From: a virus
Lineage: Duplodnaviria; Heunggongvirae; Uroviricota; Caudoviricetes
Virus record (IMG/VR): IMGVR_UViG_2909303794_000005
Length of the DNA: 37,179 nt
Strand: one strand, 5' to 3'
Within the stretch, counting starts at the first letter, position 1. Each line of letters opens with the position of its first letter. The notes under the pieces were generated by a model. It worked only from the letters and a program-made list of their open reading frames with translations. It searched no databases and was not told the DNA's origin. The position numbers were made by a program, and so were the translations under genes. Shown in pieces: positions 1 to 34,240 of the stretch.

Positions 1-273
1 ATGAACATCGGTAAAGCAATCATCAACTACGCAGCACGTCGCAACATGGACATTACCTTGATTGGCGATGAGGCCGTGGCGTTCTGGGAAGCGGATAACG
101 ATTGTGAATGGATGTTCTCCTACATGATTGGTAATGATGGTTTCCTCCACTTTAAAGGCAATGTGTATCTGCCGCAGGAGATTAAAGAAGAATTACCGGC
201 GTGCATCGATACAGACAAGAAGCTGAAAGAAGTAATCAACTTTATCGCTAAAGAGTTTATCAGCAAGAAGTAA
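1..273 (+). CDS. hypothetical protein, possibly 5'-truncated at window edge
   Basis: ORF begins at base 1; 90 aa, no recognisable motif. Confidence 0.35.
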   Translation: MNIGKAIINYAARRNMDITLIGDEAVAFWEADNDCEWMFSYMIGNDGFLHFKGNVYLPQEIKEELPACIDTDKKLKEVINFIAKEFISKK

Positions 274-285
274 GGCAGCAAAACA

Positions 286-672
286 ATGTTCAATATCATG
301 ATTCGTAAATTTGGTGAGATGACTTTCGAGAAAGCTGGTGTTGCGCGTACAGAAGAAGAAGCAATGGCCTTAGTTCTGGTAGCACTGAGATCATCACCTG
401 AGATTATCGACGCTGAATATGTTGCGGCTGAGGGTGAGATTAAAGAGATTAAAGCGGTGGCTAAGGAATTAGGTGTTAAAGGTTTCCGTAAGCTGAAACT
501 ATCCCGCGAGTCATATGTAATTGGTAAGCAAGGACAATACCTAGATGAGAATACCGTGATTATTCTACTGAATAAGATCACCCGCTATGGTTTCCAGATT
601 GAGCAATATAAAACGTGTTTCGAATTATACGAAAAAGGTTTGCTGGATACTCTGACCATCGTTCGCGCTTAA
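286..672 (+). CDS. hypothetical protein
   Basis: ATG at 286 with weak AAGG upstream; 128 aa, no recognisable domain. Confidence 0.4.
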   Translation: MFNIMIRKFGEMTFEKAGVARTEEEAMALVLVALRSSPEIIDAEYVAAEGEIKEIKAVAKELGVKGFRKLKLSRESYVIGKQGQYLDENTVIILLNKITRYGFQIEQYKTCFELYEKGLLDTLTIVRA

Positions 673-812
673 TTAATTTCTAATTTGGTGGGTGTAATTC
701 CCACCGCTTTTTAAATGGAGAATCAAACATGTTAGCTTTTATCTCATTCGTGGGAGGTAGTCTCACAACTATGATTAGTCTTTCTTATATTGTCGTTAGT
801 ATGGGGTGAGCA

Positions 813-938
813 ATGAAACAATTTCATGATGGCATTTCATCTAAGACATTCAAGAAAGAATATAGCGGATTGTGTATTAACTGGATTGATTTGATTGGTG
901 CGGTTGTGTTTGGTCTGGTAATTAGCATCAATTTTTAA
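813..938 (+). CDS. candidate small hydrophobic peptide (41 aa)
   Basis: ATG 813 after GGGGTGAG; translation MKQFHDGISSKTFKKEYSGLCINWIDLIGAVVFGLVISINF with hydrophobic C-terminus. Below ORF-track cutoff, speculative. Confidence 0.2.
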   Translation: MKQFHDGISSKTFKKEYSGLCINWIDLIGAVVFGLVISINF

Positions 939-983
939 CGATATAAATATATCGTAATTCAAATAACAAGAGGAAATTCTACT

Positions 984-1229
984 ATGAAAAAGATTATCGC
1001 GGGTATCGTTCTTGCTCTGGGTTTGGTTGGTGCTGCAAATGCCGAACAATATGTACAGGGTGATAGTGTCAAGCGTGCTGCCGTTGCACCTTCTTTAAAT
1101 CAACTGTGTACTGAATTAGCACAGATTGCCGGAGTTGGTGACGATGACGACTTTATTACTGCGTGTGTATGGAGTCATATCGAGGATATTAATAAACGTG
1201 ATGCAAAACTAACTGGAAAGAAATATTAA
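984..1229 (+). CDS. small secreted/periplasmic protein with Sec signal peptide
   Basis: RBS AGAGGA upstream of ATG; N-terminus MKKIIAGIVLALGLVGAANA then EQ (AxA signal peptidase I site, no lipobox); two Cys in the roughly 61 aa mature part. Confidence 0.6.
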   Translation: MKKIIAGIVLALGLVGAANAEQYVQGDSVKRAAVAPSLNQLCTELAQIAGVGDDDDFITACVWSHIEDINKRDAKLTGKKY

Positions 1230-1245
1230 TGACTTACTAACCAAT

Positions 1246-1279
1246 GCCCCTATCGTTATAATACGCGGTAGGGGCTTTT
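1246..1279 (+). terminator. rho-independent terminator
   Basis: GCCCCTA / TAGGGGC stem followed by TTTTTGTTTT directly after the 984-1229 stop. Confidence 0.6.
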
Positions 1280-1294
1280 TGTTTTGGAAATGGT

Positions 1295-2974
1295 ATGAAA
1301 ACTAAACTGTATTCGTATATTCGCTTCTCGTCTATGCGTCAGAGTGATGGTTCGAGTTATGAACGACAAATCAGGATGGCGAGAGAGATTGCGGCAAAGT
1401 ATGACCTTGAACTGGTAAATGATTATCAGGATCTGGGTGTATCTGCGTTTAAGGGTGCTAACTCCAAAACAGGGGCGCTATCTCGTTTCCTTGATGCAAT
1501 TGGTAGATCCGTTCCTGTTGGTAGCTGGCTATTCATCGAGAACTTGGACCGTTTATCCCGTGCCGATATTGTCAGTGCGCAGGAGTTATTCCTTTCAATA
1601 ATCCGTAGGGGGATAACCATTGTTACTGGCATGGATAACAAGATCTACTCGCTGGATACTGTTACCGCTAATCCGATGGACCTGATGTTCTCCATCCTTT
1701 TATTCATCCGTGGTAATGAGGAAAGCCAGACTAAGCGCAATCGTACTAACTCAAGCGCATTGATTAAGATTAAAGCTCATCAAGAAAATCCACAAAATCC
1801 GGCAGTGGCTATCGAGGAAGTTGGAAAGAATATGTGGTGGACTGATACCACTTCCGGTTATGTGCTGCCTCATCCGGTGTACTTCCCTGTTGTTCAGGAG
1901 ATTGTGGAATTACGGAAGAATGGACGTTCAACCGCCGAAATACTGGATCACCTTAACGAGACATATGCACCACCACCAGCGGTTAGTAATAAGAAGCATT
2001 CAAAATGGTCACGGGCAATGGTTGAAAGGTTGTTTCATACCCGCGCTTTGATTGGTATCAAGGAAATATCTGTAGATGGCGTTAACTATGAGTTAAAGGA
2101 TTATTACCCTCGTGTTATTGATGACCCTACGTTCTATCACCTTAAGAAAAATATTGGTGCTAGAGCATGGAACTTTGGAGACAAGGAAGAAGTTAAACCG
2201 ATCCCCCTGCTTAGTGGTATTGGCCTATTGAAATGTGATCATTGCGGTTGCGCTATGGTTAAAGTGAAGGGAACGAACAAACGTTCTGACCAGTATCGTT
2301 ATACATGTGATGCGACCCGTTCACGTAGACTTGATTGCGAGCATCCAAACTGGAGTTTTCGAGGTGATCAATTAGAGAAAGCTGTATTGCAATTGCTGGC
2401 TGATAAAATCTGGATTGCTGAGGACAAGGCTAATCCGGTTCCGGCGTTGAAAGTACAGGTTGATGAAATATCACGCAAGATTGATAACCTGATTGCCCTT
2501 TCTGCTATGACAGGAGCAACGAAGGAGCTAGCCGATCAGATTACTACCCTCAATAGCGAGCGTGAAACACTCTACAATCAGATCAAGATGGCAGAAGAGG
2601 AAATGTATTCTGTTGACTCTCAAGGCTGGGAGAAGCTCGCAGAATTTGATTTAGAAGATGTTTACAACGAGGAACGACTAAAGGTCCGGTTTAAGATTAA
2701 GCAAGCTCTAAAGCGGATCGGGTGTAGCAGGATTGACAGAAACAAAAACTTGTTTGTACTGGAATACATCGATGGAAAGACCCAGAGAGTTGTAATAGAA
2801 AATTCAAGAGGAACGAGGAAAGGACAAATCTTTGTCGATTTGAAGACCATCAATGATAGGCAGATTCTGGAGAGTAACGGGCTTGTTCTGCATCCATGTT
2901 TAGACATGCTGACAGATAAAGACTGGAAACCAGAAGAGGAAATACCAGGTCCATTACAGGAATTTGGAATTTAA
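1295..2974 (+). CDS. large serine recombinase (serine integrase/resolvase superfamily)
   Basis: N-terminal resolvase catalytic motif YIRFSSMRQ...RQ, Cys-rich zinc-ribbon segment CDHCGC...C...C, C-terminal coiled-coil; 559 aa is typical of large serine recombinases. Confidence 0.85.
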   Translation: MKTKLYSYIRFSSMRQSDGSSYERQIRMAREIAAKYDLELVNDYQDLGVSAFKGANSKTGALSRFLDAIGRSVPVGSWLFIENLDRLSRADIVSAQELFLSIIRRGITIVTGMDNKIYSLDTVTANPMDLMFSILLFIRGNEESQTKRNRTNSSALIKIKAHQENPQNPAVAIEEVGKNMWWTDTTSGYVLPHPVYFPVVQEIVELRKNGRSTAEILDHLNETYAPPPAVSNKKHSKWSRAMVERLFHTRALIGIKEISVDGVNYELKDYYPRVIDDPTFYHLKKNIGARAWNFGDKEEVKPIPLLSGIGLLKCDHCGCAMVKVKGTNKRSDQYRYTCDATRSRRLDCEHPNWSFRGDQLEKAVLQLLADKIWIAEDKANPVPALKVQVDEISRKIDNLIALSAMTGATKELADQITTLNSERETLYNQIKMAEEEMYSVDSQGWEKLAEFDLEDVYNEERLKVRFKIKQALKRIGCSRIDRNKNLFVLEYIDGKTQRVVIENSRGTRKGQIFVDLKTINDRQILESNGLVLHPCLDMLTDKDWKPEEEIPGPLQEFGI

Positions 2975-3010
2975 GCGGCCTAAATCGACGTATAACGAGC
3001 TAAACGCTTT

Positions 3011-3040
3011 AAGGGGTACATTCGTACCCCTTTTTAATTT
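3011..3040. terminator. bidirectional rho-independent terminator between convergent genes
   Basis: AGGGGTAC / GTACCCCT stem, loop ATTC, flanked by T-runs on both strands. Confidence 0.6.
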
Positions 3041-3047
3041 AATTGCG

Positions 3048-4223
3048 TTAGGCAGCGTCTAAGAGAGTATTAAAGTATTCATCCATTAAATCAGGACTGT
3101 CGTCATCAATACAGAAAAATTCTGGTTTATTGATGCCGTAGAAGTGAGTATGTAGCTTGAATGTATCCTCATCAAATACATCTTTCGGAGATACCCACAT
3201 ATTAGCCTCGTCCGGTTGATTGGTTAGGTAGTCATAAACCAGTTGTTGTAAGTGTGGTAACTCATCAATAGTCAGAGTTTCCGACCATCCATCCTTGAAA
3301 TCTTTGTAGGGTGCGGCGTGAGTCTTGAAGCGTTGTTTTACTTCATGCTCTAAATCGGCAGCTTTCCAACCATCCTCAAACTCATGAGTAAAGATTAAGC
3401 GGTGAGTGAAGTTGCTCTTTCTGGTTTGTTCTCTCATTCGTTCTTCTGGTTTTCGGGTAGTGATTCCAAATTTAATAAATTTGTCATCTAATAATTGAAT
3501 GTAGAAACTAGCCTTACCCTGATAAGTCCGGTTAGACAGTTGCACCAGTTGGTCTTTAATGCAAAGCGGACAAGTGAAAGAATCAGCACATCTTAAATGA
3601 GATTCCCATTCGTGGTTATGTGACTTGCAATAGGTTTTAAATTTAACATCCTTTAGGTGTGGGGTGTTTATGATGAATCCTTTGAAGATGTAAGGTGTAG
3701 TCTCGCAACGTGCATTGATGAGTGTCTCTTTGTCCTTAATAACTTCATCAAAAGTCTTGCCACTTCTTACCCGTTGGGATTTTTCAGCCATACAGATTTT
3801 ACAATCAAAATCAAAATCATCCTTGAGAGCATGTAATAGAGATGGCGTCATGATTTGATTGTGTATAGGACACAAAACACGGGCTTTTGTCTTGTTGCGC
3901 CCTTTCCATTCTCCTTGCCATCCTAGAAACTTCTTTCCCTTCTCATTACAACGAGATTCCATTTTCAACCATACAGCCTTTTCAGTCTGGAATAACTCAC
4001 CCCCGTTAGTATCTTCCAGTTTGCGTAATTTGTAGTCCTTATATTCTTGTGTGTCTAAATTGTATAACCGGAAGTAAGTATGATTACCTTTCCACGGTAG
4101 GATAAATCCACCAAATACAAAAGTAGGTTCCAGTTTAGTGATGATTCGTTGTTGGTACTCTTCCGGCGATAAACCGCGAGTTTTCTTAACAAAAGGAATT
4201 TCGGCAGCGTAAGCAAGTTTCAT
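3048..4223 (-). CDS. T5orf172/GIY-YIG-like domain protein with Cys-rich zinc-ribbon-like region
   Basis: Start chosen at internal ATG (MKLAYAAEIPF) with RBS GAGGA 7 nt upstream, not the upstream ATG of the 428 aa ORF. Motif FYIQLLDDKFIKFGITTRKPEERMREQ...DGWSETL matches the T5orf172 pattern from memory; CxxC pairs in the N-terminal half. Confidence 0.45.
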   Translation of the reverse strand: MKLAYAAEIPFVKKTRGLSPEEYQQRIITKLEPTFVFGGFILPWKGNHTYFRLYNLDTQEYKDYKLRKLEDTNGGELFQTEKAVWLKMESRCNEKGKKFLGWQGEWKGRNKTKARVLCPIHNQIMTPSLLHALKDDFDFDCKICMAEKSQRVRSGKTFDEVIKDKETLINARCETTPYIFKGFIINTPHLKDVKFKTYCKSHNHEWESHLRCADSFTCPLCIKDQLVQLSNRTYQGKASFYIQLLDDKFIKFGITTRKPEERMREQTRKSNFTHRLIFTHEFEDGWKAADLEHEVKQRFKTHAAPYKDFKDGWSETLTIDELPHLQQLVYDYLTNQPDEANMWVSPKDVFDEDTFKLHTHFYGINKPEFFCIDDDSPDLMDEYFNTLLDAA

Positions 4224-4378
4224 AGTAGTTTCCTCTAAAATAATAAGCTCACTACTATTTATTAGAGAAAATTGTCTTACTATTGCATTCTCTATCTGAA
4301 TGTGTATAATACGCGACCCTAAATCCCAAACCAACCATATTGAGGTTATGCCTATAAGTTAAAAAAAGTGAGGTCTAT

Positions 4379-4948
4379 ATGATTCCAGTAATGGCTAAAG
4401 ATATTGTTTTTACTCCTAAATCCTCCCGTGCTGTAACTCCATCGGCATTAGAACAACGCATTCTGACTCACATCAAAGATAAGGACTTACCATTAGTCTT
4501 TCATGGCTTTCTGGGTGAGTTTAAAGGGCTTCATTCAAGAATTGCTCTAACATGTACCCGATGCGGTAATAGAGCCGACAAATCAGCTACTAACCTGCTT
4601 AATGAAGGTAAACGATGTGTTTGCTTCAATAGTGACTACTTTCAATATAAAGCGGGTGTGCCTTATCTCTATGTAATGAAGTCTGGGGATATTGGTAAAT
4701 TTGGTGTTACAAAGTCAATCATCAAGCGACGTGTTAATCTGGGTGTACGCAATCCCGGTCATAACTTTGATATTGTCTTTGCTGGTGAAATGCCATCAAT
4801 GAAACATGCACTAGCCACTGAAAGAGCAATAAAGAGATTACTGGATGTGGGTATAGGCGGGATTGAATACGGCAAAACTGAAACATTCCACTACTGCAAT
4901 AAATCACTAAACAATATAAAGAATATTGCAAGTGTGGAGTGGAACTAA
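4379..4948 (+). CDS. T5orf172/GIY-YIG-like domain protein with zinc-ribbon-like N-terminus
   Basis: RBS GTGAGG before ATG 4379; CTRCGN...CVC cysteine cluster, then YLYVMKSGDIGKFGVTKS...RR...GKTETF resembling the T5orf172 domain. Confidence 0.45.
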   Translation: MIPVMAKDIVFTPKSSRAVTPSALEQRILTHIKDKDLPLVFHGFLGEFKGLHSRIALTCTRCGNRADKSATNLLNEGKRCVCFNSDYFQYKAGVPYLYVMKSGDIGKFGVTKSIIKRRVNLGVRNPGHNFDIVFAGEMPSMKHALATERAIKRLLDVGIGGIEYGKTETFHYCNKSLNNIKNIASVEWN

Positions 4949-6438
4949 TGCAAGATATTAAAATTCATTTTCAAGATTACAGTTTCGTTAAGGTTGATTG
5001 CTCTCCTTCTATCGGAATGGAATTAAGAGATTATTTCTCTTTTGAGGTTGAAGGGGCTAGGTTTAGCCCCCGATACAAGTATTCAGGCTGGGATGGACGA
5101 ATAAGACTGTTTACGCATGAAAATACCCTACCAATTGGACTATTAAAAACATTGGGTGTCTTCGTTAAAAATATGGGGTATTCAGTCTGGATTGACCCGC
5201 GATTGCTTGAGAAGGAAGATGTAACCAAAGAACAGATTGATTCATGGATTGACTCTTTAGAAGTGTATTCCGGTTCCAATAAAATCAATCCTTACTGGTA
5301 TCAGCGTGAGGCAGTCTTTCAGGGTATTCATAATCGCCGTAGAATGCTGGTTCTTCCTACCAGTGCGGGTAAGTCATTGATTGCTTGTATGCTGTCTCGT
5401 TGGTACTTAGAGCATTACACCGGAAAGGTGTTAATCATTGTCCCGACTACATCGCTAGTGGTTCAAATGAGGGATGATTTCATCGATTATCGGTTATTCC
5501 CTTATGAAGCAATCCATACAATGATGAGTGGTAGCGGGAAACATCCGGGAGACAGGTTAATCACGGTTAGTACCTGGCAATCAGCTTGCAAGATGCCCCC
5601 TGAATGGTTCAAACAATATGGAATGTTGATAGTTGATGAATCGCATAAGGCTAGTGCCAAAAATATTACCAATATCATCAATGGAATGAATCATTGCCAG
5701 TTTAAAATCGGCATGACTGGTTCCCCGAAAGAATCAAAATGCCATCTTTTACAGTATGTCGGGCTTTTCGGTGATATTTCTAAGATCGTGAGTATTGACC
5801 GCCTGATGGAAGAAGGCCAGGTGACAAAACTGAAAATTAACTGTCTTTTCCTTCGTTATACCGATGAGGAATGTAGCGCGGTTAAGGGTAGAGAATATGC
5901 GGAAGAGATCAAGTATATTACGTCTAACCCACGACGTAATAAGTTTGCTTGTAATTTGGCGCTAAAACTCGCTAAGAAGGGCGAAAACGTATTCCTTATG
6001 TTCCGCAATACTAAGCACGGAAAACTTATGTATGATGCGTTACAGAAGGTACACGACAAGGTTTATTATATTGACGGTGGAGTTAAGACAGAAGAACGTG
6101 ATGAATTTAAGAAAATGGCGGAGGGTGACACCGGGATCATTTGTGTTGCGTCTTATGGTGTGTTCTCTACTGGTGTTTCAATTAAGAATTTGCACCATGT
6201 TATTTTCGGTCATCCAGTGAAGGAATCAACTATCGTTCGTCAGAGTATCGGTCGTGCATTGCGTAAACATGGTTCTAAGGATATTGCAACGGTCTGGGAT
6301 CTTATCGATCATTTGTGTATATTTGGTCGTAACGGAAAAATCAAGCATAAAAATTATGCGGTAAAACATGCACTTGAGAGAATCCGCTATTATCTGACCG
6401 ACAAGTTCAGCTATGCAACTAAAACAATTGCTATATAA
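4948..6438 (+). CDS. uvsW: UvsW-like SF2 DNA helicase
   Basis: ATG 4948 overlaps the upstream stop (TAATG) with GGAG 7 nt upstream. N-terminus MQDIKIHFQDYSFVKVDC and later blocks (LPTSAGKS Walker A, DESH, VASYGVFSTGVSIKNLHH, GRALRKHGSKDIATVWDLID) closely resemble T4 UvsW as recalled. The ORF track's upstream GTG at 4939 is less likely. Confidence 0.85.
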   Translation: MQDIKIHFQDYSFVKVDCSPSIGMELRDYFSFEVEGARFSPRYKYSGWDGRIRLFTHENTLPIGLLKTLGVFVKNMGYSVWIDPRLLEKEDVTKEQIDSWIDSLEVYSGSNKINPYWYQREAVFQGIHNRRRMLVLPTSAGKSLIACMLSRWYLEHYTGKVLIIVPTTSLVVQMRDDFIDYRLFPYEAIHTMMSGSGKHPGDRLITVSTWQSACKMPPEWFKQYGMLIVDESHKASAKNITNIINGMNHCQFKIGMTGSPKESKCHLLQYVGLFGDISKIVSIDRLMEEGQVTKLKINCLFLRYTDEECSAVKGREYAEEIKYITSNPRRNKFACNLALKLAKKGENVFLMFRNTKHGKLMYDALQKVHDKVYYIDGGVKTEERDEFKKMAEGDTGIICVASYGVFSTGVSIKNLHHVIFGHPVKESTIVRQSIGRALRKHGSKDIATVWDLIDHLCIFGRNGKIKHKNYAVKHALERIRYYLTDKFSYATKTIAI

Positions 6439-6440
6439 CA

Positions 6441-6472
6441 AAAAAGCGCCCACTAGAGGCGCTTTAATTTTA
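6441..6472. terminator. bidirectional terminator between convergent helicase and lysis-region genes
   Basis: AGCGCC / GGCGCT stem flanked by an A-run upstream and TTAATTTTA downstream. Confidence 0.5.
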
Positions 6473-6823
6473 TCCATTCCATCGTGATTTTTTCGATCTG
6501 GAATCGATATGCGTAAATGTTTTATATTTTCCTAAGCCGTATTGGGTAGGATATTTCCCATCAAGATAAGCATGAACAATATCAGGTGAGACACCCTTGA
6601 TAACAATGTCAGCCGCACGGCCTCGAACATGATAGCTATTGGCTGCCCCGCCTACATTCTTGTTATGAGTCGGACAACGGTTCCCACTGTTAATAATTAC
6701 TGGTTTCCCGAAGTGTTCGCGTACATCCTCAAGAATTACCAGTAATTCAGCGTCGATTGTATCATAATCACATTTTCCACATTTACATTTAAATTCCTTG
6801 CGAGAAAAATGTTTGCTTAACAT
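6470..6823 (-). CDS. peptidase M15 family cell-wall hydrolase (putative endolysin)
   Basis: RBS AAGGGGG upstream; FSRKEFKCKCGKC...IINSGNRCPTHNKNVGG...SYHVRGRAADI...THID matches the M15 zinc-peptidase signature (His/Asp/His ligands). Confidence 0.7.
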   Translation of the reverse strand: MLSKHFSRKEFKCKCGKCDYDTIDAELLVILEDVREHFGKPVIINSGNRCPTHNKNVGGAANSYHVRGRAADIVIKGVSPDIVHAYLDGKYPTQYGLGKYKTFTHIDSRSKKSRWNG

Positions 6824-6832
6824 ATTACCCCC

Positions 6833-7180
6833 TTAGATCATTTCGAAGATATAACCAATAAAGCGCATACCCTTGATATAATAAGGAGCAGTGCCTACAC
6901 ACACCGCGCGTGCATCGCCCAGACAGTTAAAGCTATAAGGATTAACCACATCAACTTCTTGCCCTACACGAAAACGATACTTAGGACGTTTAGCCAATGT
7001 AGCGACACAAAACACGGTCCCTTTTTCATGATCGCGGATACATTCTTTATATTGTTTATGTTTAACTCTCTTCGCCTCAAAATCATAGGTCATTGATTCA
7101 GGGCTAATGCCATTAATAAAAATACCGGAAAGCTGATCGACCGGATAAGTAGGAAATTCAGTAAAAATATTTTTAGCCAT
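6833..7180 (-). CDS. hypothetical protein
   Basis: RBS GGGGGT upstream of ATG; 115 aa, tightly spaced with the M15 gene (operon-like). Confidence 0.45.
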   Translation of the reverse strand: MAKNIFTEFPTYPVDQLSGIFINGISPESMTYDFEAKRVKHKQYKECIRDHEKGTVFCVATLAKRPKYRFRVGQEVDVVNPYSFNCLGDARAVCVGTAPYYIKGMRFIGYIFEMI

Positions 7181-7218
7181 GTTATACCCCCATAAGATTC
7201 TATGAGGGTATTTATTGA

Positions 7219-7902
7219 TTAAACGTATTTCATGCGCGATTTAATGTGCTTATTGATGTTTTCAAGCATCATTGCTTCGTTGCTTTCCCACGATCCTAGC
7301 GTCGAATAACGAGTAGAAATTTTATCCGATTTAACGGCAACGATTCGCTTACTCTGTTTCTGTATGCGTTTCTCTAAGCGACGTTTTGCCACCGCCGATC
7401 CATTCCTAGCGCGTTTGGTTCGGGATTTCTTAGGCTTGTACTTCTTCATGATAAAAGTCCCTTCCTGGTTCTCTACCTTGATGAAGTTGCCATTTTCGAT
7501 GTTACGCATCATCTTACCGCCTTTGATGGCCTTAATGTTCCCGTGGGCGTCTAAGACCTTACCGTTGGCGATTGGCACTAGCTTATTGATTTTGCCACCA
7601 TCGAAATAGTGTTTCAGATAGTCATCCTGACTGCCGATCTTCTTGTCCTTATCCCTTGCGCCCTTGATGAAGATTTGGTGTCTCGTCCCTGATCGGTTCT
7701 TGTAGTTGGTATTACCTACAGCTTGCTGAGTCCAGCGAGTAGGTCTATCAACATTCTTGTTAATCTTCTTCTGTAGTGCACGAGCAGCAAAGATCGCCCC
7801 TTCCCCTATCGCCCTTTCGAATGTATCGGTTGCCTTTTCAGACCATTGCCGTAACGCTTTCTTAGTCCTTAGAGCGTTTCGTTTATTGGTACTGGTTGCC
7901 AT
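7219..7902 (-). CDS. basic Lys/Arg-rich hypothetical protein
   Basis: RBS AGGGGG upstream; 227 aa with many K/R clusters (KKYKPKKSRTKRARN); function unknown. Confidence 0.45.
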   Translation of the reverse strand: MATSTNKRNALRTKKALRQWSEKATDTFERAIGEGAIFAARALQKKINKNVDRPTRWTQQAVGNTNYKNRSGTRHQIFIKGARDKDKKIGSQDDYLKHYFDGGKINKLVPIANGKVLDAHGNIKAIKGGKMMRNIENGNFIKVENQEGTFIMKKYKPKKSRTKRARNGSAVAKRRLEKRIQKQSKRIVAVKSDKISTRYSTLGSWESNEAMMLENINKHIKSRMKYV

Positions 7903-7903
7903 G

Positions 7904-8074
7904 TTAGCCCCCTAATAACGAAAAGACCCCCGCCAGTGTCCTTAGCAATTGTTCATCCACGGTCATAGCCGGGAGTTCAAGCCCAAAGGACGTTAGCAGA
8001 GGTCTAATAGCTACGTTATAAGTGAGGGCGACAATCAAGAGATAACCAAAATATTTCTTAAGTTTATTCTTCAT
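7904..8074 (-). CDS. candidate small membrane protein (56 aa)
   Basis: Not in ORF track (under 60 aa). Strong RBS AGGGGTGA before ATG; MKNKLKKYFGYLLIVALTYNVAI... has a hydrophobic segment; stop lies next to the start of the downstream gene. Confidence 0.35.
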   Translation of the reverse strand: MKNKLKKYFGYLLIVALTYNVAIRPLLTSFGLELPAMTVDEQLLRTLAGVFSLLGG

Positions 8075-8092
8075 ATATTCACCCCTTTATTA

Positions 8093-8371
8093 TTATTTTT
8101 GTTTGAGTATGTCGAGAACTTGGTCAAATTTGGCGTCCATCGCAACCACTTTCTTCTCTATACCGTGTAGTGTTTGTTCCATTTGGTAAACACGTTCAGC
8201 AATCTGAGTATGGTTGTTCTGCATCGTCTCAAACTTCTGGTTTAACAATGCGTCGCTGGATTCCAATTTCGACAATCTATTTTCAGTTGCTAATTGATTT
8301 CGGTGAAGTCTCCAAAGACCACCGCAAATTAAGGCGATAACACCGATACCGCCATATATAATTTCAGTCAT
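8093..8371 (-). CDS. membrane-anchored coiled-coil protein (lysis-associated candidate, i-spanin- or holin-like)
   Basis: RBS GGGGGCG upstream; N-terminal hydrophobic helix GGIGVIALICGGLW followed by heptad-like coiled-coil sequence. Confidence 0.45.
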   Translation of the reverse strand: MTEIIYGGIGVIALICGGLWRLHRNQLATENRLSKLESSDALLNQKFETMQNNHTQIAERVYQMEQTLHGIEKKVVAMDAKFDQVLDILKQK

Positions 8372-8422
8372 TACGCCCCCGATATTTTTATAATTTCATG
8401 GCAGAATTATTTAGATAAAAAT

Positions 8423-8456
8423 AATCCCGCCTAACTCAAAAGAATTACGCGGGATT
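8423..8456 (-). terminator. rho-independent terminator downstream of the native tail-tip gene stop
   Basis: AATCCCGC / GCGGGATT stem followed on the minus strand by ATTTTTATCT; lies just below the reconstructed native stop at 8476-8478. Confidence 0.45.
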
Positions 8457-8524
8457 AATTATTAAAATTAAATTTTTAAGAAACAGTAATACCCGTAGTG
8501 GCTTTTTTAGTTACCATTACAGTT

Positions 8525-8533
8525 AAATCACTG
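8525..8533. repeat. IS1 target-site duplication, left copy (AAATCACTG)
   Basis: Identical 9-mer directly abuts both IS1 termini. Confidence 0.9.
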
Positions 8534-8548
8534 GGTAATGACTCCAAC

Positions 8549-18440: not shown

Positions 18441-18472
18441 CAATAAAAAAGCCCCACCATTAAGGCAGGGCT
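18441..18472 (-). terminator. rho-independent terminator after putative tail tube gene
   Basis: Minus-strand AGCCCTGCC TTAA TGGTGGGGCT (G-U wobbles in RNA) followed by TTTTTATTG. Confidence 0.6.
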
Positions 18473-18603
18473 TATAATTAATCTTTAGCCTTGCGGCTTC
18501 GTTTAGCTGTGGCTTTCGCCGTAACAACCTCTAATTCTGGAATCACCACCGCTTCATGTTCCGGCTGTGGTTCCGGTTCTATTAAAGGAAGTTCTTCGTT
18601 AGT

Positions 18604-19080
18604 TCATCCGGCAGTATTGAAGATTTCCTGTTTCAGCGGTTTGCCGTCCACTGCAAAGGTAAACTCTTTAGTTACCACTTCTTCATCGCCACCGTTCATA
18701 GCAACTTTAGAAATAAAGCCGTTGAAAGCGGTGCGAATACCAGTCTGTTTTGCTGCGTCAACGTAATATTCTACTTTAATCTGAATACGAGTACCGTCTT
18801 CGGCAGCTTTGATCAGTTTTTCATGTACCGCATCGCCTGGGATGTAGTTAACGGTCAGAGTCAGATCAGGAACGTTCAGCTTCCCTACCAGTTTACGGTT
18901 ATACTGAGAAGAGAAGGATTTAACTTCTACAGTACCGCGTTCGATAGCAGTTTCCGGGAATCCGGCGCACTCTTTAATTTCTTCATAGCCCTCATGGTTG
19001 AGAGCGGTGTTAGTGGTATCGGCGTGATAGAACAGACTTACCAGACCACCAGTAAAAATATCTTTAAATTGCTGAGACAT
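18604..19080 (-). CDS. putative major tail tube protein
   Basis: RBS AAGGGG upstream; 158 aa; followed by a strong terminator and a conserved readthrough extension shared with the capsid gene (see findings). Assignment is by position and expression signals, not by a recognised motif. Confidence 0.45.
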   Translation of the reverse strand: MSQQFKDIFTGGLVSLFYHADTTNTALNHEGYEEIKECAGFPETAIERGTVEVKSFSSQYNRKLVGKLNVPDLTLTVNYIPGDAVHEKLIKAAEDGTRIQIKVEYYVDAAKQTGIRTAFNGFISKVAMNGGDEEVVTKEFTFAVDGKPLKQEIFNTAG

Positions 19081-19110
19081 AGAATTACCCCTTAATTAAA
19101 ATTGTTATTA

Positions 19111-19129
19111 CGGGGGAACTAGTCCCCCG
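19111..19129. terminator. GC-rich hairpin after tail fibre gene
   Basis: CGGGGGA ACTAG TCCCCCG inverted repeat between the fibre stop and the next RBS. Confidence 0.35.
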
Positions 19130-19136
19130 ACTTTTA

Positions 19137-22100
19137 TTATTTAGTTGCTTTGAGTTCGGCAATTTCTTTCTGTAATGCTTCGATCTGGGCTTTATATTTG
19201 GCGTCCATTTCCTGAATAGCTTTAATAATCAAGGCATTAACAGCGGAGTTAGAAATTGTTAAGATCTCTTCTGGCTTATCTGGATCTCCGATCTTTGAGG
19301 TTGTTACTGCTTCCGGCAATTCTTTTTCAAGATCCTGAGCAATAATACCAACTTCATGAGCAATGACAGTACGGTCGGTTAAAGACTTAACCTTATCGTA
19401 GGTGTACACAGTCAAGCGATTAATTTTATCGGTTGCATTCTCTTTATACTCTTCCTTGTTGATTTTAAGGCGAGCATCAGAACGAATATACACATCGTTA
19501 AAGTTACCATTGCGACCAGCTTGGAAATCACCGGAGGCGTTAAAGTCAAAGTTTGTGGTATGAATATGAAGACGTGCCATAGCATTAGTAATAACACCAC
19601 TAGGAACGTGTACACCCATTGCTGCGATGTGGTCTAAACCCCATTTGGTCGCTTTCCATACGTTATATGCGGAAGTTTGAGCATTAGGACAATCAACCAA
19701 TAAGCCAGCAGCGCGAGTTTTCCATTCTGACCATGCACCACCTTGTACTTCTCCGCGAATCAAACCACGGTCGCTACCGTTTGCATACCCACGTTCTAAG
19801 CGAATCATACCAGTCTGGAAAACATGGTCAAATTCTCCGCTGTTATAGTTTCGAATGCGCATTTGACCTGTGCTATCACCCCAGATAACACCACGGTTAG
19901 TACCATTAGCATCCTTAAACCAGAGTTCTTTATTACCATCTCTATACATCTGAATTTGGTTATTGGTACGCAAAACATTAGTAACCACCAAATCACCATT
20001 TATCTGAGCACGACCACCCGTTTCTAAACTACCAGCAACTCTGAATTGAATCGAACCGTTAGAATCACGCTGAGAATATAGATGATAGCTTGTTTCGTCA
20101 GCAAGTTCCCACACCTGAGCGCGAGAAGTTCCATTACCCCAATTCTTAATAAAAAATCTAGATGCAGATCCTTCGCTACGTTCCCAATATAATCGAGACC
20201 CTAAATGTGTTGTTGCATTTATTTCTACTTGACGATTTTCATTGTTGAGACGCATTAAATGATTACCAGCATCACTACCACCTAGTGTAACGTTACCATT
20301 GGCTAGGCTATAGATGAACGGCCTAAAGGTATTCCACGGACCCATAGTGTCGCCTGATTTTGTGCTCATCAGATAAACGTTACTACCGTCATTTCGCCAC
20401 CATGAACCATAGTTACCATATACAGTACGGAAGCCATCAGCATATAAAGAAATGAATTGACCGTTGGTATAGACTCGCTTCATGTTACCTGTCTGAAATT
20501 CGATCTGTCCGTCGATATGTTGACGAATAGAACTGCCACCTACATCGCTATACCATTCAAAAACGTTAGTATCAGCATTGGCATAACCGATCCAACCTTG
20601 ACGCGTAATATTTCCAGTCCGGTTATCTTGAAACGCAATGTGGTTAGATTGACCAGCAGGTCGGCGTAGTGTAATGACATTAGATCCGCCATTTAACAGC
20701 ATACGACCAGAAATAATATTACCCTTATGAGTTCCGGCAATTGAGCTACTAGATTCAATAGTCATAATTTCCTGAGCATCAGTGCTACCAGTAGCCAGAC
20801 GATAGCTGGCACCTTGAACAGTCTCATGCCAGATCATTTCATTATAGTTACTACGGAATTTACGAATATATTTTCGTCCAGTACCCCTATCATTACTCAA
20901 GTGAACAATATCATAACTGTTTTGTGTGTTATCGTCAAAACTCAACACACCACGTTTATTTTCAGTATTAAAAAGAGTTACGTTGCGACCACCGATAACA
21001 CCAACGGAAGGTTTAATTAACGTGGCTTCCGGCGTATCATAAACCGTCAAACTTACATAAACAGATTTCCCATATTCGACAATAACGTTATCGGTATAAC
21101 GCTGATATTTCACGTAGATATCATAGTTATCACCGGAAGTATTGACAGCAAATACCTCAAAATCTTTGTTTGTATTTCTACGGTATGCAATTACGTTAAG
21201 ACCTTTAGGTCTATCGTTACCACTACGCAGAAGAATTTCTACTACGTCAACCTGATCATATGCCGTAACGTTGTAACCATTACCACCATGAATACGGAAA
21301 AACACACTACGCCCGTTTTGTGGAATTGTTGCGGTTGCCAATTTGAAATATGCAGATACGTTTTCGCTAGAATTAGGAACAGACATAGTGACGTTTTTAA
21401 CAAACATCTTGTCAACTTCTGCTTTAGTGTATGCACCGATTTCGCCAGGAGTCGGCTTATCACCTTCGTGATACATCTTATAGCTAAAGTTCTTCTGTCC
21501 TTCTCTATCAAAACCATAGGTTTCAACACGAGATCCACCAGACGCATAACGGAAAGTAAATCCGCGACCGTGAGCTTTACCGGCAGAGTGAGGAACGTTA
21601 AGAGTTAGATCCATGAGTCCATCTTGACCATTGGTACGGAAAGCACCAAAGTAGTTAAGATCTCTCGCTGTCTGGTCTTCCAAATAGTTAGCTGTTTTGG
21701 TTAACAGATACCCGCCGTGCTTAGTGTTGGTATTCTTCTTGATGTAAAGAGCATCGTTACTACCTTCAATACCATCAATTCGACGGTTAGCGGCTGCGAT
21801 CGCTGAATCAGTATCAGTTTTGTTTTTGTCAACCTTTGCGTTAATAGCGGTATGGTTGCTATTCACCGTCCCTGTAAGGTTACTGATTTTAGTATCAGCA
21901 TCGCGTTTATTGTTCGCTACCGTAGTTTCAATGGCTGATTTGTTAGCTGCAACGGTACTCGTTAAGCTGGAGATCTTGGAATCAGCATCAGACTTGTTAG
22001 CTGTAACGGTTTTGGTCAGATTGCTAACATTGGTGTTAGTGGTATCAACACGGCTATTGATCGCGGTGTTATTGTCATTAACCGTCGTGGTTAAAGCTGC

Positions 22101-22577
22101 GATTTTATTGTCCGCATCTCGTTTATTATTTGCTACAGTAGTTTCTATAGCTGATTTGTTAGATGCAACTGTCCCCGTAAGGTTATTGATCTTAGTATCA
22201 GCATCGGTTTTATTTGCCGTGACTGTCTGGGTTAAGTTACTAACCGTGGTGTTAGTAGCATCAATGCGCTTATTGGTCGCTGTATCTTTCGTGGTAATAG
22301 TCTGATTCAGTTCAGCTTTAGCACTAGCCAGATTATTAGCGGCTTCTTGTTTGTTGGAAGCAATAACACGGTCAGTGCTAGTTTTGTTATTGTCTACTTT
22401 AGTGTTAAGTTCAGCGTGTTTTTCTGGAGAAACACTAATTTGGACTACGTTATTATTTTTGTCTTTGGTGTAAATCACATGATCCGCCAACTGTAAGGCG
22501 ATTTCACCCTGTGATAATTGTTCCGGCGTTGGCTTTTTACCAGCCGTCTGTGTGCGTTTAAATTGGATCGACTGCAT
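19137..22577 (-). CDS. tail fibre with C-terminal intramolecular chaperone (peptidase S74-like) domain
   Basis: RBS GTGAGGTGA upstream; 1146 aa; C-terminal SDARLK...LTDRTVIAHEVGIIAQDL...AVNALIIKAIQEMDAKY resembles the self-cleaving chaperone domain of T5 L-shaped fibre / endosialidases as recalled. Confidence 0.8.
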   Translation of the reverse strand: MQSIQFKRTQTAGKKPTPEQLSQGEIALQLADHVIYTKDKNNNVVQISVSPEKHAELNTKVDNNKTSTDRVIASNKQEAANNLASAKAELNQTITTKDTATNKRIDATNTTVSNLTQTVTANKTDADTKINNLTGTVASNKSAIETTVANNKRDADNKIAALTTTVNDNNTAINSRVDTTNTNVSNLTKTVTANKSDADSKISSLTSTVAANKSAIETTVANNKRDADTKISNLTGTVNSNHTAINAKVDKNKTDTDSAIAAANRRIDGIEGSNDALYIKKNTNTKHGGYLLTKTANYLEDQTARDLNYFGAFRTNGQDGLMDLTLNVPHSAGKAHGRGFTFRYASGGSRVETYGFDREGQKNFSYKMYHEGDKPTPGEIGAYTKAEVDKMFVKNVTMSVPNSSENVSAYFKLATATIPQNGRSVFFRIHGGNGYNVTAYDQVDVVEILLRSGNDRPKGLNVIAYRRNTNKDFEVFAVNTSGDNYDIYVKYQRYTDNVIVEYGKSVYVSLTVYDTPEATLIKPSVGVIGGRNVTLFNTENKRGVLSFDDNTQNSYDIVHLSNDRGTGRKYIRKFRSNYNEMIWHETVQGASYRLATGSTDAQEIMTIESSSSIAGTHKGNIISGRMLLNGGSNVITLRRPAGQSNHIAFQDNRTGNITRQGWIGYANADTNVFEWYSDVGGSSIRQHIDGQIEFQTGNMKRVYTNGQFISLYADGFRTVYGNYGSWWRNDGSNVYLMSTKSGDTMGPWNTFRPFIYSLANGNVTLGGSDAGNHLMRLNNENRQVEINATTHLGSRLYWERSEGSASRFFIKNWGNGTSRAQVWELADETSYHLYSQRDSNGSIQFRVAGSLETGGRAQINGDLVVTNVLRTNNQIQMYRDGNKELWFKDANGTNRGVIWGDSTGQMRIRNYNSGEFDHVFQTGMIRLERGYANGSDRGLIRGEVQGGAWSEWKTRAAGLLVDCPNAQTSAYNVWKATKWGLDHIAAMGVHVPSGVITNAMARLHIHTTNFDFNASGDFQAGRNGNFNDVYIRSDARLKINKEEYKENATDKINRLTVYTYDKVKSLTDRTVIAHEVGIIAQDLEKELPEAVTTSKIGDPDKPEEILTISNSAVNALIIKAIQEMDAKYKAQIEALQKEIAELKATK
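19140..19481 (-). other. intramolecular chaperone domain of tail fibre (predicted autoproteolytic release)
   Basis: Begins at the Ser of IR-SDARLK (residue about 1033); domain boundary inferred from the family motif. Confidence 0.55.
21831..22265 (-). repeat. in-frame tandem repeat in tail fibre N-terminal shaft
   Basis: Two near-identical 72-73 aa units (DATNTTVSNLTQTVTANKTDADTKINNLTGTV... and DTTNTNVSNLTKTVTANKSDADSKISSLTSTV...) with about 24 aa sub-periodicity. Confidence 0.6.
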
Positions 22578-22654: not shown

Positions 22655-23488
22655 TTAATACTCACCGAAATCGATCCGGTCCGTCTTAGCCACTGCGCCA
22701 ATTTCGCTAGGTGTCGGTTTCTCATTGGTGGAATATACCTTGATCCATTCAGAACGACCGTTTTCCTGAATATTTCGGACACGTAAACGCGGTGCGCCAG
22801 AAGTATTACAGGTTAATTGCCATGCGCCATGCTCATTAGCTTGAAGATGAATTAACGATGTATCAGCACCATAAGGGTTAGTGCTAGCCGTTCCTTTGTA
22901 GGTTACGAAACGGTTTCCTGCTAATGCCTCGCTATCAATACCGCCCGTGAATGGATGTACACCAGCACCGATACCAAAATCACCCTGACGTAAGATACGG
23001 CCTTCGGTAGCAATACCCCTTGCCAAAATCCCGCCATCTGGTTCAAGTTTAAATTCCAGTGTTACAGCTTTGTTATCACTACCACGGGTTTTATGTGATG
23101 TGACGTAAGCATCATAGATGACATAGTAACCAGTGTTAGCAGCACTATAGCCAGAGTTCACAACATAGAACATACGGAAGCGTAAAGGTGTTTTATCCTC
23201 TACCGCTTTCATCAACATTGCTTGATGTTCATCGTCAAGAACACGGTTTAACGTGAGTGTTGTCGGTTCCAGTCTACGATAACCAGCAAGTTTCCCCGTA
23301 GCGTCCTGATCGTACTCTTCCAGAGTTTCTATCTCTGTGGATTCTGTTAGCGTAGGGAATGCTGCGACGTTCTCAATAGAACTAAAGCTAGGATCGAAAA
23401 AGTCGACCTGATTGTCTAGCTGGTTAGAGATTGAAATCTCTACATGGCTTCCAGTAAAAATATCTAAGTTATCATGCGTAATATTCAT
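22655..23488 (-). CDS. virion structural protein with fibre-like C-terminal motif
   Basis: 277 aa between connector genes and the tail fibre; C-terminal NEKPTPSEIGAVAKTD echoes KPTPGEIGAYTKAEVD inside the fibre. Confidence 0.4.
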   Translation of the reverse strand: MNITHDNLDIFTGSHVEISISNQLDNQVDFFDPSFSSIENVAAFPTLTESTEIETLEEYDQDATGKLAGYRRLEPTTLTLNRVLDDEHQAMLMKAVEDKTPLRFRMFYVVNSGYSAANTGYYVIYDAYVTSHKTRGSDNKAVTLEFKLEPDGGILARGIATEGRILRQGDFGIGAGVHPFTGGIDSEALAGNRFVTYKGTASTNPYGADTSLIHLQANEHGAWQLTCNTSGAPRLRVRNIQENGRSEWIKVYSTNEKPTPSEIGAVAKTDRIDFGEY

Positions 23489-28484: not shown

Positions 28485-30392
28485 TTAGAACGATGTTACC
28501 CAACTACGGCCTCTATTTGGACGTCTGGCGATGTTTTTACGTTGTGGTCGTGTGATTGGCTTAGTTTCTTCGATTTGCTCGTTAGATTGCGATTTAGGAG
28601 CTTCTACGGGTTCTTCGACAACACGGTTTAAGCTGTCTTTCATTGCAATGAGTTTATCCCATGACATTTTTGAAAGGACGTAGCGAGAAGCCGCTGTAGC
28701 ATACACGGCGCAGTCGAGCGCCTCGTTTCGTGTCGCACCTGGATTTTTTACCCATCTCACGCCAGTAGTAGTACGCTTAACAGATTCACTTAAAAGCTGA
28801 TCGAGATAATCATCAGGAACGGTGTCTGATATTTCTAAGGCAATATGAGGATTATCTTTCAGGTTCCTAGCCAACATTTCACGAAATGCAGTTTTACCCA
28901 CGTTAACACCCAACATAAGCAATTCATGACCACCTGTGCGGGTAGGTTTAACCGGAATGATCGGAGCGTTACCAGCAGAACTACCTTTGATAGCGTGTAA
29001 GTTCTTCCACTTGCCGCAAATACGGTATCCAGCTTGAGTGAATCGACCGTTCGATGTATCAAGGAAGCTGGCGAGCATAGGAACACGATCACCCGATACA
29101 GTAGTAAATTTGGTTTTATGGAAGTTGATTAATCTATCCCATACAGGGGATTCATATCGTTCACAGTTATGATCGTAAAAGCTACGGTGATCCAGAATGT
29201 AAACCTTATCTTTCGCTACACCTAAGATGGTAGTTTCTGCGCGATCTAATTGCTGGTCAGTACCCGCACATAAGAAAATCACGTCATCAGGGATATTCTC
29301 GATAGAAACATCTGTTTTGAGTTGTTCCAGTTCATTTGCTTCTACTGCCGTGTCCTGATCGTCGTATACCTTACCTAACACGGTGTTATAAAATGATTGT
29401 AAATCAAAGGATTGCCACGCATGACTAAAATCAACCACACAAGCGCGGATACTACTGAAAGGTGAATACAGACGGCTAATCCAGAATCCTGCTACCTCAC
29501 TTTCACGGGTTGCTCTCCACTCTCCTTGTGCTACTGCCCTGATTCGTTCCCCTTCTGTCCATGCGTTCTTACAGTGGGGGCAAATATAACGAGCGGTATC
29601 AGGATCGGGTAAGTTCTTACCATCGATGTTACGCCATTCAAATTGAACGTTTTCCCACTCGATCACCTGGTGTTCCCCGCAATGAGGACACGGAACAAAA
29701 AACATACGCATATCGCTTGATAACCATTGCTGGTTAATGCTTCCCAGCTTACTGGTCGGGGTACTGGATACGACTAATCGACCTTCATCGCCAAAGGTAG
29801 TTAAACGGTTAGCAGCCAGTGCCACCGGATCACCTTCTTCTGAGGCTGTAGCAGCATCGATTTCGTCAAGCAATCCAACCTTTGCGGTCTTACCACGTAG
29901 GGTCGATGGACTGGTTAGCGATACCATGTAAAGGAAGTGATTCGTTTTTAGCTGGAGTTGGTTATTGTTGTTAACCGCATTGCGATCATTCTTGTCTGTA
30001 ACAACGTCTTTTAATGCATCACATGCTTCGATAGACGGTCGGATCTTACCAGCGAGATATTGAGACATTTCTTTAGCGGTTGATTGTCCGATAATCATAT
30101 TGCATGGATCGTTAGCCATCTGGTTAAACAGGATGCCGTTCAGGATGGTAGTCTTTCCGATCTGCGCACTGGTCATCAGAACATACTTTTTCTTATTCTC
30201 AAGGAAAGGAGCATCAATCATGCCTTTCTGGAATGACAGCAATTTAACTTTATCCCCAGCTTGAGGACCATCTACCAGCACCATATTCGCTTCGCACCAT
30301 TCCGATGGAAGGAGTTTAGGCGGTGGCGTAATATATTTGGCTGCATTTCTGAGAATCTTTTTTAATTTGGCCTTATTAGAAATCAGTTTCAT
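28485..30392 (-). CDS. terL: terminase large subunit (lambda gpA family)
   Basis: Walker [10 protein letters not shown], paired CPHCGEH...CPHCKN zinc-finger typical of GpA-type terminases, C-terminal nuclease region; RBS GAGGGT upstream. Confidence 0.9.
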
Positions 30393-34016: not shown

Positions 34017-34201
34017 GGGGGCAAATTTCAGGGGCAAAAATTAGATTTTCAGGGGCAATTATTGGCATTTCAGGGGCAAAAATGAGGGGCAAAATCACCG
34101 TTTCCCAGAATTTCAGGGGCAAAAATATTGGGTTTCAGGGGCAAAAATGGGATGTGGAATCTAGGGTATTTTGGTTCAGGGGCAAAAATTCAGGGGCAAT
34201 T
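34017..34201 (+). repeat. iteron array: 9 direct copies of (TTC)AGGGGCAA(AAAT)
   Basis: GGGGCAA cores at 34018, 34031, 34052, 34073, 34086, 34116, 34138, 34179, 34193, spaced 13-41 bp; an inverted copy at 33961-33969. Confidence 0.8.
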
Positions 34202-34240
34202 TTCATAGTGTAGGGCTAGTGTAGGTTTGAAAATCCTTTG

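Follow-up and report, generated by a model that had tools for sequence, protein, structure and literature searches.

The lysis genes S-R-Rz/Rz1 of phage lambda bring small membrane protein genes and a soluble endolysin gene together in the late transcription unit, at the proximal end of the late genes. A group of five genes in the viral record IMGVR_UViG_2909303794_000005 resembles this arrangement in part. The record, 37,179 nucleotides long and called the window below, is nearly the whole of a ~36-kb prophage. Its five genes follow a J-like tail gene on the minus strand, and the first-pass annotation of the DNA took them for one probable lysis cassette with an M15 peptidase. We favor a different account, with a probability of about 55%: the segment would be a composite of lysis genes and a probable virion tail-completion gene, mostly known parts in an unusual arrangement, and not a pure lysis cassette.

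Proteins described in several phages are close in kind to those of the segment. LysPM1 of Proteus phage Homer is a Peptidase_M15_3 endolysin of 116 residues with demonstrated activity, whose zinc triad and catalytic motif have been described. The releasin gp25 of phage Mu has 99 residues, with four residues in the periplasm and a cytoplasmic domain of 73 residues, and DUF2730 covers its whole length (Chamblee et al. 2022, PMC9239132). What DUF2730 proteins do beside endolysins that lack secretion signals is a question left by the same authors (PMC9239132). Lcc6 of the Shewanella prophage LambdaSo, a protein of 65 residues with a single transmembrane domain (TMD) and no family, is required for lysis at the holin step (bioRxiv 10.1101/2024.01.23.576932). 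The tail completion protein of SPP1, gp16.1, is reported to be required for directing DNA to the cytoplasm (PMC11099176).

The five genes and the M15 peptidase

The genes of the segment are, from 5′ to 3′:

8371..8093, minus strand: g92, 92 aa, bitopic membrane protein, candidate lysis membrane factor
8074..7904, minus strand: g56, 56 aa, small membrane protein, holin candidate
7902..7219, minus strand: g227, 227 aa, very basic, probable tail completion protein of the lambda gpZ, SPP1 gp16.1, HK97 gp10 and 80alpha gp51 class
7180..6833, minus strand: g115, 115 aa, conserved companion of g227
6823..6470, minus strand: g117, 117 aa, predicted Zn-dependent Peptidase_M15_3 endolysin

The first-pass annotation had described five co-oriented, tightly packed genes, among them a coiled transmembrane (TM) protein, a hydrophobic peptide, a very basic protein and an M15 peptidase, and these features were reproduced. 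All open reading frames (ORFs) lie on the minus strand at 8371..6470. The gaps between g92, g56, g227, g115 and g117 are 18, 1, 38 and 9 nt, and a GGGGG-type ribosome-binding site stands 5′ of every one of the genes. The pI of g227 is 10.7, with 55 Lys and Arg versus 19 Asp and Glu. The M15 peptidase is the 117-residue product, and the 115-residue protein comes from a distinct gene.

The gene contexts of relatives were fetched through g227 homologues. These are scarce, with six clusters in an index of 5.8 billion proteins and 12 representatives among 1.84 billion. The order in the relatives is J, a TM protein of 92–111 residues, a TM protein of 54–57 residues, a basic protein of 181–239 residues, a protein of ~100–117 residues and a muralytic enzyme. 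Providencia, enterobacterial genome assemblies and metagenomic relatives all retain this order, with protein identity down to 20–40%. All five genes are under purifying selection, with dN/dS of 0.04–0.22 versus relatives wherever dS was measurable. These ratios, together with an order that recurs at such low identity, indicate that the genes are not chance ORFs.

Relatives differ in the enzyme that fills the last slot. It is a Peptidase_M15_3 in the window and in loci L005, L007, L008 and L022, a Peptidase_M15_4 in L009/L010 and L018/L019, and a GH24 lysozyme in L020/L021. The sub-unit of g56, g227 and g115 also occurs without g92 in two other arrangements, in phage DCP80 and in the metagenomic contigs L016/L017. 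In these contigs the trio lies just 5′ of the terminase genes, and a divergently oriented lysozyme gene adjoins it.

g117 is very likely the endolysin of the prophage, with a muralytic activity predicted from its sequence. The protein matches Peptidase_M15_3 in Pfam above the cut-off (E 9e-28) and phrog_894, annotated 'endolysin', in PHROGs (1.7e-45). Aligned along its whole length with the annotated endolysins of SP6-like phages, it shows 60–64% identity, and 549 phage records match it. The zinc site is complete: the motifs SxHxxGxAxD (S63..D72), F103-x-H105 and D107 can be read from the sequence, with H65, D72 and H105 as the zinc ligands, and they correspond to the zinc triad and catalytic motif of LysPM1. 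The interchange of M15_3, M15_4 and GH24 enzymes in the slot, typical of endolysin modules, supports the same assignment. The suggestion in the first-pass annotation that the peptidase is a plausible endolysin thus gains considerable ground, and the enzyme is an ordinary representative of a known family.

The endolysins of SP6-like Autographiviridae (gp53 of UAB_Phi78 and those of Proteus phages PM85 and Pm5460) and LysPM1 share with g117 a length of 115–117 residues, the Pfam domain, the SxHxxGxAxD and FxH zinc-site motifs and the lack of an export signal. Unlike the SP6-like enzymes, g117 belongs to a temperate siphovirus prophage and is encoded at the end of a tail operon. The small genes flanking SP6-type endolysins showed no similarity to g92, g56 or g115. 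g117 has no signal or signal-anchor-release (SAR) sequence; therefore a lesion in the membrane is needed for it to reach the wall. The remaining window ORFs scanned against Pfam and PHROGs contained no other muralytic, holin or spanin family, so the check for a canonical lysis cassette elsewhere yielded no recognised lysis family.

The basic protein g227 and the tape measure

g227 is probably a tail completion protein, which would place it in the virion. Its family has 15 members, nine of which match phrog_1924 ('minor tail protein'). The most distant member, P0067, has an end-to-end match to phrog_1924 (2.4e-33), and its similarity also reaches phrog_27 ('tail completion or Neck1'). The phage homologues of P0067 are gp44 of the Rhodobacter phages RcCronus, RcRhea and RcSaxon, encoded by the last gene before cos and the small terminase gene. 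The motifs DRPT.FT, YL and GN are common to RcCronus gp44 and the g227 family. RcCronus is also a siphovirus of ~36 kb, and its tail tip, like that of the prophage, is encoded by hub, peptidase-position and host-specificity genes that the Rhodobacter gene transfer agent has as well. Unlike g227, gp44 has no g56- or g115-like neighbours, and the RcCronus endolysin is a SAR-type lysozyme encoded after the large terminase.

The predicted fold is consistent with the same class. An AlphaFold2 (AF2) model of g227 from a 14-sequence alignment reached a pLDDT of 72.5 and a pTM of 0.60; with six close homologues, AF2 gave a pLDDT of 43 and an unusable model. The best match of the predicted fold was 80alpha gp51 (PDB 9mu2 chain P). 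The model contains the long N-terminal helix, β-hairpin, short helix and C-terminal helix of the tail-completion fold, and the predicted order of elements includes an inserted β region, as noted for gpZ. Matches of g227 in BFVD were weak but on theme (HK97-gp10, 'putative tail-component' and 'type I neck protein'). Foldseek against PDB found nothing for g227, and PDB sequence-profile searches with g227 and with g115 returned only noise.

At the level of sequence, g227 lies outside the Minor_tail_Z and HK97 gp10-type models, and its sole link to the class is the one to phrog_1924 and phrog_27 through P0067. The protein itself has no Pfam match, and Minor_tail_Z reached an E of 0.11 in one homologue only. 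The probability was below 1% when the g227 family was aligned by hhalign with the single sequences of lambda gpZ and HK97 gp10. The lack of a significant gpZ or HK97 gp10 match, by sequence or profile, is one difference from the tail completion proteins 80alpha gp51, lambda gpZ, SPP1 gp16.1 and HK97 gp10. Another is the site of the gene, which stands after J among lysis genes, with a coupled gene for a 56-residue membrane protein 5′ of it. The canonical neck site of the prophage holds a gpFII-like gene of 96 codons (Phage_attach 1.9e-4) and one gene for a protein of 140–156 residues, followed by the tube gene. The g227 gene, 3′ of J, is outside this head-closure and tail-terminator slot.

The strongest association of g227 is with the tape measure gene:

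14759..17188, minus strand: tape measure gene (TMP), whose allele type tracks the g227 allele type

In an identity matrix of six loci, the identities of TMP and g227 correlate with a Pearson coefficient of 0.97, above every other gene. Between the window and L030, g227 is 40% and TMP 41% identical, whereas Dit, hub, DUF6950, J and g92 are 90–97% and g56, g115 and the lysin 76–86% identical. Between the window and L002, g227 is 98% and TMP 95% identical. The two genes have been replaced jointly in tail-to-lysis modules that are otherwise 84–97% identical.

Across the window, L030, L031 and L032, g227 and TMP are the two hypervariable genes of the tail-to-lysis region, with four allele types at ~36–61% identity. 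The neighbouring genes stay at 64–97%, and the tail tube gene varies independently.

Lambda gpZ is a very basic protein of ~190 residues. A tail-completion role would explain both the charge of g227 and its co-variation with TMP. The first-pass annotation had called the basic 227-residue protein unusual in this context. It is indeed very basic and placed outside the neck position, yet it is best explained as a divergent tail completion protein and not as a lysis factor.

A g115 gene lies 3′ of the g227 homologue in eight loci and in DCP80, as judged by compared sequences, and a 132-residue ORF takes that slot in L016. Pfam, PHROG and PDB searches found no relative of g115 outside its own family. 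The role of tail terminator was considered for g115. Neither lambda gpU nor the HK97 terminator gave a positive result with it in hhalign, no PHROG or Pfam family matched, and the idea is weakened further because the gene for a 140–156-residue protein is already at the terminator position.

The membrane proteins and the explanations compared

g92 has a TMD at residues 4–20 with a predicted N-out/C-in topology that would leave about three residues in the periplasm, followed by a helical or coiled domain of 72 residues that is predicted to be cytoplasmic. Its architecture is clearly that of the Mu gp25 releasin. The proteins of the g92 family have ~92–105 residues, and gp25 has 99. In both, an acidic N-terminus of 2–5 residues, placed outside, precedes a single TMD whose end reads GG..W; basic residues follow directly on the inner side, and a helical cytoplasmic domain of ~70 residues completes the protein. 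In the 10 g92 homologues the N-flank consists of 0–5 residues with no Lys or Arg and at most one acidic residue, and the 15 residues past the TMD contain 2–4 Lys or Arg; the pattern of flank charges in gp25 is the same. Both genes lie within a few genes of an endolysin gene.

The two differ in other respects. The g92 gene is three genes upstream of the lysin gene, not downstream. The host element is not transposable; it has serine recombinase integration and lambda-type terminase genes. The g92 protein is not a member of DUF2730 at the Pfam level. Because its partner endolysin lacks a SAR domain, the mechanism published for the releasin cannot hold here unchanged. Mu gp24 and gp26 bear no resemblance to g56 and g115 as possible counterparts.

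A sequence relation of g92 to DUF2730 is suggestive. The hhalign score of the g92 family against DUF2730 exceeded every one of 200 null scores; these came from separate block shuffles of the TMD and tail columns, which destroy heptad periodicity. A faint precomputed match to PF10805 is present in the g92 homologue of L020. The weak PHROG matches of g92 are to phrog_739 (three homologues) and phrog_1863. The former raised an i-spanin as a candidate identity. This was ruled out by the predicted N-out/C-in topology and the lack of an o-spanin partner, and the hhalign scores versus Rz and Mu gp23 were below that for DUF2730.

g56 begins with a Lys-rich segment, followed by one TMD and by an amphipathic, acidic C-terminal tail ending in GG. 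Its topology, which like that of g92 was among the checks proposed in the first-pass annotation, is predicted to be N-in/C-out. Homologues are present in L005, L007, L008, L009, L016, L018 and L020 and as an ORF in DCP80, with dN/dS of 0.11–0.22. In every context seen, the g56 stop codon is within 1 nt of the g227 start or overlaps it. By size and position, g56 is the best candidate for the holin.

A search for lipobox ORFs with ATG, GTG or TTG starts found none in the cassettes of the window, L001, L005, L007 and L008, and the sole match in the L009 cassette was the TMD of the g92 homologue. The scan of the whole window for spanins returned only a spurious ORF inside the tape measure gene. 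Neither an i-spanin with a lipobox o-spanin nor a unimolecular spanin was found in the cassette. The statement that no clear holin or spanin pair is present therefore holds for the cassette of the window, as regards spanins and recognised holin families, and, with regard to lipobox ORFs, for the cassettes of the relatives. In this the segment departs from lambda S-R-Rz/Rz1, with neither an S-like holin family nor Rz/Rz1 or a unimolecular spanin. It also has two probable non-lysis genes between the membrane proteins and the lysin, and it stands at the distal end of the late genes. That small membrane proteins like g56 and g92 can act as additional lysis factors has a precedent in LambdaSo Lcc6, to which we liken them without claiming a sequence relation. 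LambdaSo differs in having a pinholin, a SAR endolysin and spanins.

On the composite reading, the segment would be the terminator-bounded distal end of the late gene string, and transcription would pass a conserved hairpin downstream of J or start after it. g117 would act as a small cytoplasmic zinc peptidase that reaches the murein only after a breach of the inner membrane. g92 and g56, small inner-membrane proteins of opposite predicted topology, would most likely supply this membrane step. g227 would sit inside the neck and touch the DNA end and the N-termini of the tape measure, and g115, its constant companion, may also be in the virion. The system would have no recognisable spanin.

Several observations weigh against this reading. 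A tail completion gene after J breaks the canonical order, and the co-variation of TMP and g227 comprises only four allele types, with no discordant case. For g92, the PF10805 match is absent in the window protein at E <= 1, the hhalign comparison of the family with five DUF2730 proteins gave a probability of 30% (E 5.5e-4, 41 in-register columns), and single-sequence scores versus DUF2730 (11–20) overlap those of i-spanin controls (12–16) and exceed them only slightly. Neither g56 nor g92 matched a holin family in Pfam or PHROGs, the nearest being phrog_1296 at E 0.051 in two of 11 homologues. g56 lacks the charged C-terminal tail usual in holins, and its translational coupling to g227 persists in arrangements with the endolysin at another place (L016 and DCP80). 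Finally, a 94-residue protein encoded at 36246..36530 (minus strand) has three hydrophobic helices and a short basic C-terminus, a shape like that of class I holins, and could be the real holin. It has no family match. Its gene is directly downstream of a Nu1-like small terminase gene (36625..37179, minus strand), which lies ~6 kb from the large terminase gene (28485..30392), across a block with a Rha-family regulator.

The 94-residue protein enters an explanation in which only g117 is lytic. The genes g56, g227 and g115 would then form a virion or DNA-entry module, in which g56 might, for example, insert into the membrane after ejection along with the tail completion protein; g92 would be a membrane protein of the exclusion or moron kind, and the holin would be elsewhere, for example the class-I-holin-like protein just described. 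The close junction of g56 and g227 in all contexts, the persistence of the trio without g92 in DCP80 and L016, and the reported need for SPP1 gp16.1 in DNA routing (PMC11099176) would all suit such a module. Yet g92 and g56 remain with the endolysin slot across three enzyme types, and g92 resembles the Mu releasin, which works with endolysins. The 94-residue protein is without family match, and on the map of the prophage ~29 kb separate its gene from that of the endolysin. We know of no small hydrophobic virion protein of the g56 kind in lambda-like necks, which also counts against this explanation, and we regard it as unlikely. It would be hardly credible, in our judgement, that the whole cluster is structural, with g117 as a virion-associated peptidoglycan hydrolase for entry and release achieved by other or host means, or with the element non-lytic and defective. 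The cluster does follow the tail genes directly and includes a probable virion protein, and the tails related to the Rhodobacter gene transfer agent carry a tip peptidase, at whose place this prophage has DUF6950. Against this, g117 is a single-domain protein of 117 residues, as close to the free SP6-like endolysins as described above and equivalent to LysPM1; relatives exchange it for a GH24 lysozyme or an M15_4 enzyme, as endolysins are exchanged; and no other endolysin candidate was found in a family maintained across genera.

The opposite explanation keeps all five genes in one lysis system. g56 and g92 would be holin and regulator, g117 the endolysin, and the cationic g227, with g115, would replace the spanin by destabilising the outer membrane, as cationic disruptin peptides do. 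No relative has a spanin or lipobox ORF in its cassette, g227 is extremely basic, and homologues of g227 and g115 adjoin some type of endolysin in every enterobacterial context seen. The LambdaSo preprint also cites a spanin-less phage that uses a cationic peptide on the outer membrane. It is the nature of g227 that speaks against this explanation. Its profile links lead to phrog_1924 and phrog_27, its fold best matches 80alpha gp51, and it has neither a signal sequence nor the character of an amphipathic peptide. In L016 and RcCronus its homologue is directly 5′ of the small terminase gene, away from or divergent to the lysin gene, and co-variation with the tape measure would not be expected of a lysis factor. 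We strongly doubt that the five genes are one lysis system. The single lysis cassette of the first-pass annotation is accordingly not supported: g227 fits tail completion, and it keeps company with g56 and g115 in contexts that have another arrangement of the endolysin.

The composite reading can be extended to a specific mechanism, which we consider distinctly unlikely as a whole. g92 would be a far-diverged DUF2730 or releasin-type protein outside the Mu-like phages, and together with g56 it would gate the exit of a non-SAR endolysin from the cytoplasm, in a siphovirus that has no spanin. The coupling of g56 to the tail completion gene would then tie the timing of lysis to virion completion.

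Transcription, IS1 and the surrounding prophage

The features bounding the segment, and the J-like gene in front of it, are:

8415..8457, minus strand: terminator-like hairpin with U-run between the J stop and g92, 15-bp interrupted stem, -24.1 kcal/mol, z -6.9
6443..6465: bidirectional terminator, with g117 on one side and the convergent gene of a UvsW-like helicase on the other
9280..13029, minus strand: J-like tail tip or host-specificity gene, 1249 aa, Pfam Ig_GpJ_C 4e-28 and Phage_Tail_Tip 3e-18, stop codon within IS1
8534..9301, minus strand: IS1, 768 bp, insA/insB oriented as the tail operon, 99.7% identical to the IS1 of P1 and SfIV
8476..8533, minus strand: orphaned 3′ end of J, last 15 codons and stop with one copy of the target duplication, collinear with L001 19995..20055

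The 9-bp target duplication CAGTGATTT stands on both sides of IS1, at 9302..9310 and 8525..8533. The last 15 residues of J (TVMVTKKATTGITVS in the intact relative L001) are exchanged for six residues encoded by IS1, VMLPTY. The intact relative of the J-like protein has 1258 residues. The tail gene was thus correctly described as disrupted by IS1. Because IS1 removed the C-terminus of the receptor-binding protein, the prophage in the window is probably defective, though the five genes of the segment are intact.

Hairpins equivalent to that at 8415..8457, with different stem sequences, are present in all relatives examined, and those of L005, L007, L008 and L009 fold at -19.6 to -24.6 kcal/mol. 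A simple terminator scan did not call the hairpin of the window. Between the hairpin and g92 the scan for sigma-70 promoters found none, and the conserved bases do not fit the -35/-10 spacing. Expression of the cassette probably needs antitermination through the hairpin or a promoter of a type outside the scan. Simple read-through from J to g92 is doubtful because a conserved strong hairpin separates them. The idea that lysis timing depends on read-through from the tail operon, now interrupted by IS1, is possible. IS1 insertions are polar, and only under antitermination would a polar IS1 lower the expression of the cassette.

In L009/L010 (7500..7560), the g92 homologue has its Shine-Dalgarno sequence in the 3′ arm of the hairpin, and the U-run directly adjoins its ATG. 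Such a structure could control translation.

The cassette DNA is present in 54 of 5426 complete E. coli genomes, every time in the chromosome. In phage and plasmid collections it had no match except IS1. In the two relatives examined, the element is a ~36-kb prophage within ycdX. Its genes include those of a large terminase of the lambda type and of a portal, beside a fused capsid gene; the tail module has distal-tail, hub and DUF6950 genes, with the J-like gene after them; 3′ of the latter come the five genes, a variable accessory block and a large serine recombinase. The element is a member of an uncharacterised family of temperate siphovirus prophages carrying a serine recombinase. Rfam and tRNA scans of the window found nothing.

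In the region of the window given as 17923..22577, 22655..23488 and 18604..19080, the genes for a T-even-type distal subunit of the long tail fibre (1146 aa, phrog_1699 1.8e-143) and for a gp38-like adhesin interrupt the group of tail-tube genes. The insert is flanked by two paralogous major-tail-like genes, both phrog_158. The accessory block at 3048..6438, between the lysin and the serine recombinase, encodes two CapR-domain proteins and the UvsW-like helicase. One of the CapR-domain proteins also has T5orf172/MUG113, and the other matches a PHROG endonuclease family. The block is absent in L001 and has a different make-up elsewhere, with UvsW-1 or UvsY fragments. The stretch at 33334..34424 (1.1 kb) is AT-rich (GC ~0.36–0.37), has no ORF of at least 70 residues, and lies in a presumed regulatory region near the Rha-family gene. 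The gene at 984..1229 (plus strand) adjoins the recombinase gene and encodes an 81-residue protein with a typical cleavable signal peptide (…GAANA/EQ), which could be a lysogenic-conversion or exclusion factor.

The DCP80 record (GenBank PQ671644, L004), an Escherichia phage of 141 kb classed as a T4-like Gaprivervirus, is homologous to this siphovirus prophage family over 1..11647. The block contains a tape measure gene, a hub gene, J at 38% identity, g227- and g115-like genes and a Nu1-like gene, and an unannotated g56-like ORF of 57 residues is present at 8807..8980. Either the assembly behind this record is chimeric, or the phage is a striking mosaic.

Four of the five genes of the segment are labelled 'hypothetical' in RefSeq. 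Two genes can now be named with reasonable support, as endolysin and tail completion protein, and one has a testable analogue in the releasin. The joint replacement of TMP and tail-completion alleles is natural variation that lends genetic support to the contact observed in the structure of the 80alpha neck. This replacement, the conserved coupling of g56 and g227, and a possible releasin-like factor with a soluble endolysin in a spanin-less phage outside the Mu group are the points of interest of the locus. A g92 of the releasin type, if true, would give a direct handle on the question of Chamblee et al. about DUF2730 proteins with non-secreted endolysins. If g92 and g56 release a soluble endolysin without a recognisable holin or spanin, the prophage would be a tractable E. 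coli example of non-canonical lysis, beside the Mu releasin, LambdaSo Lcc6 and the spanin-less phages.

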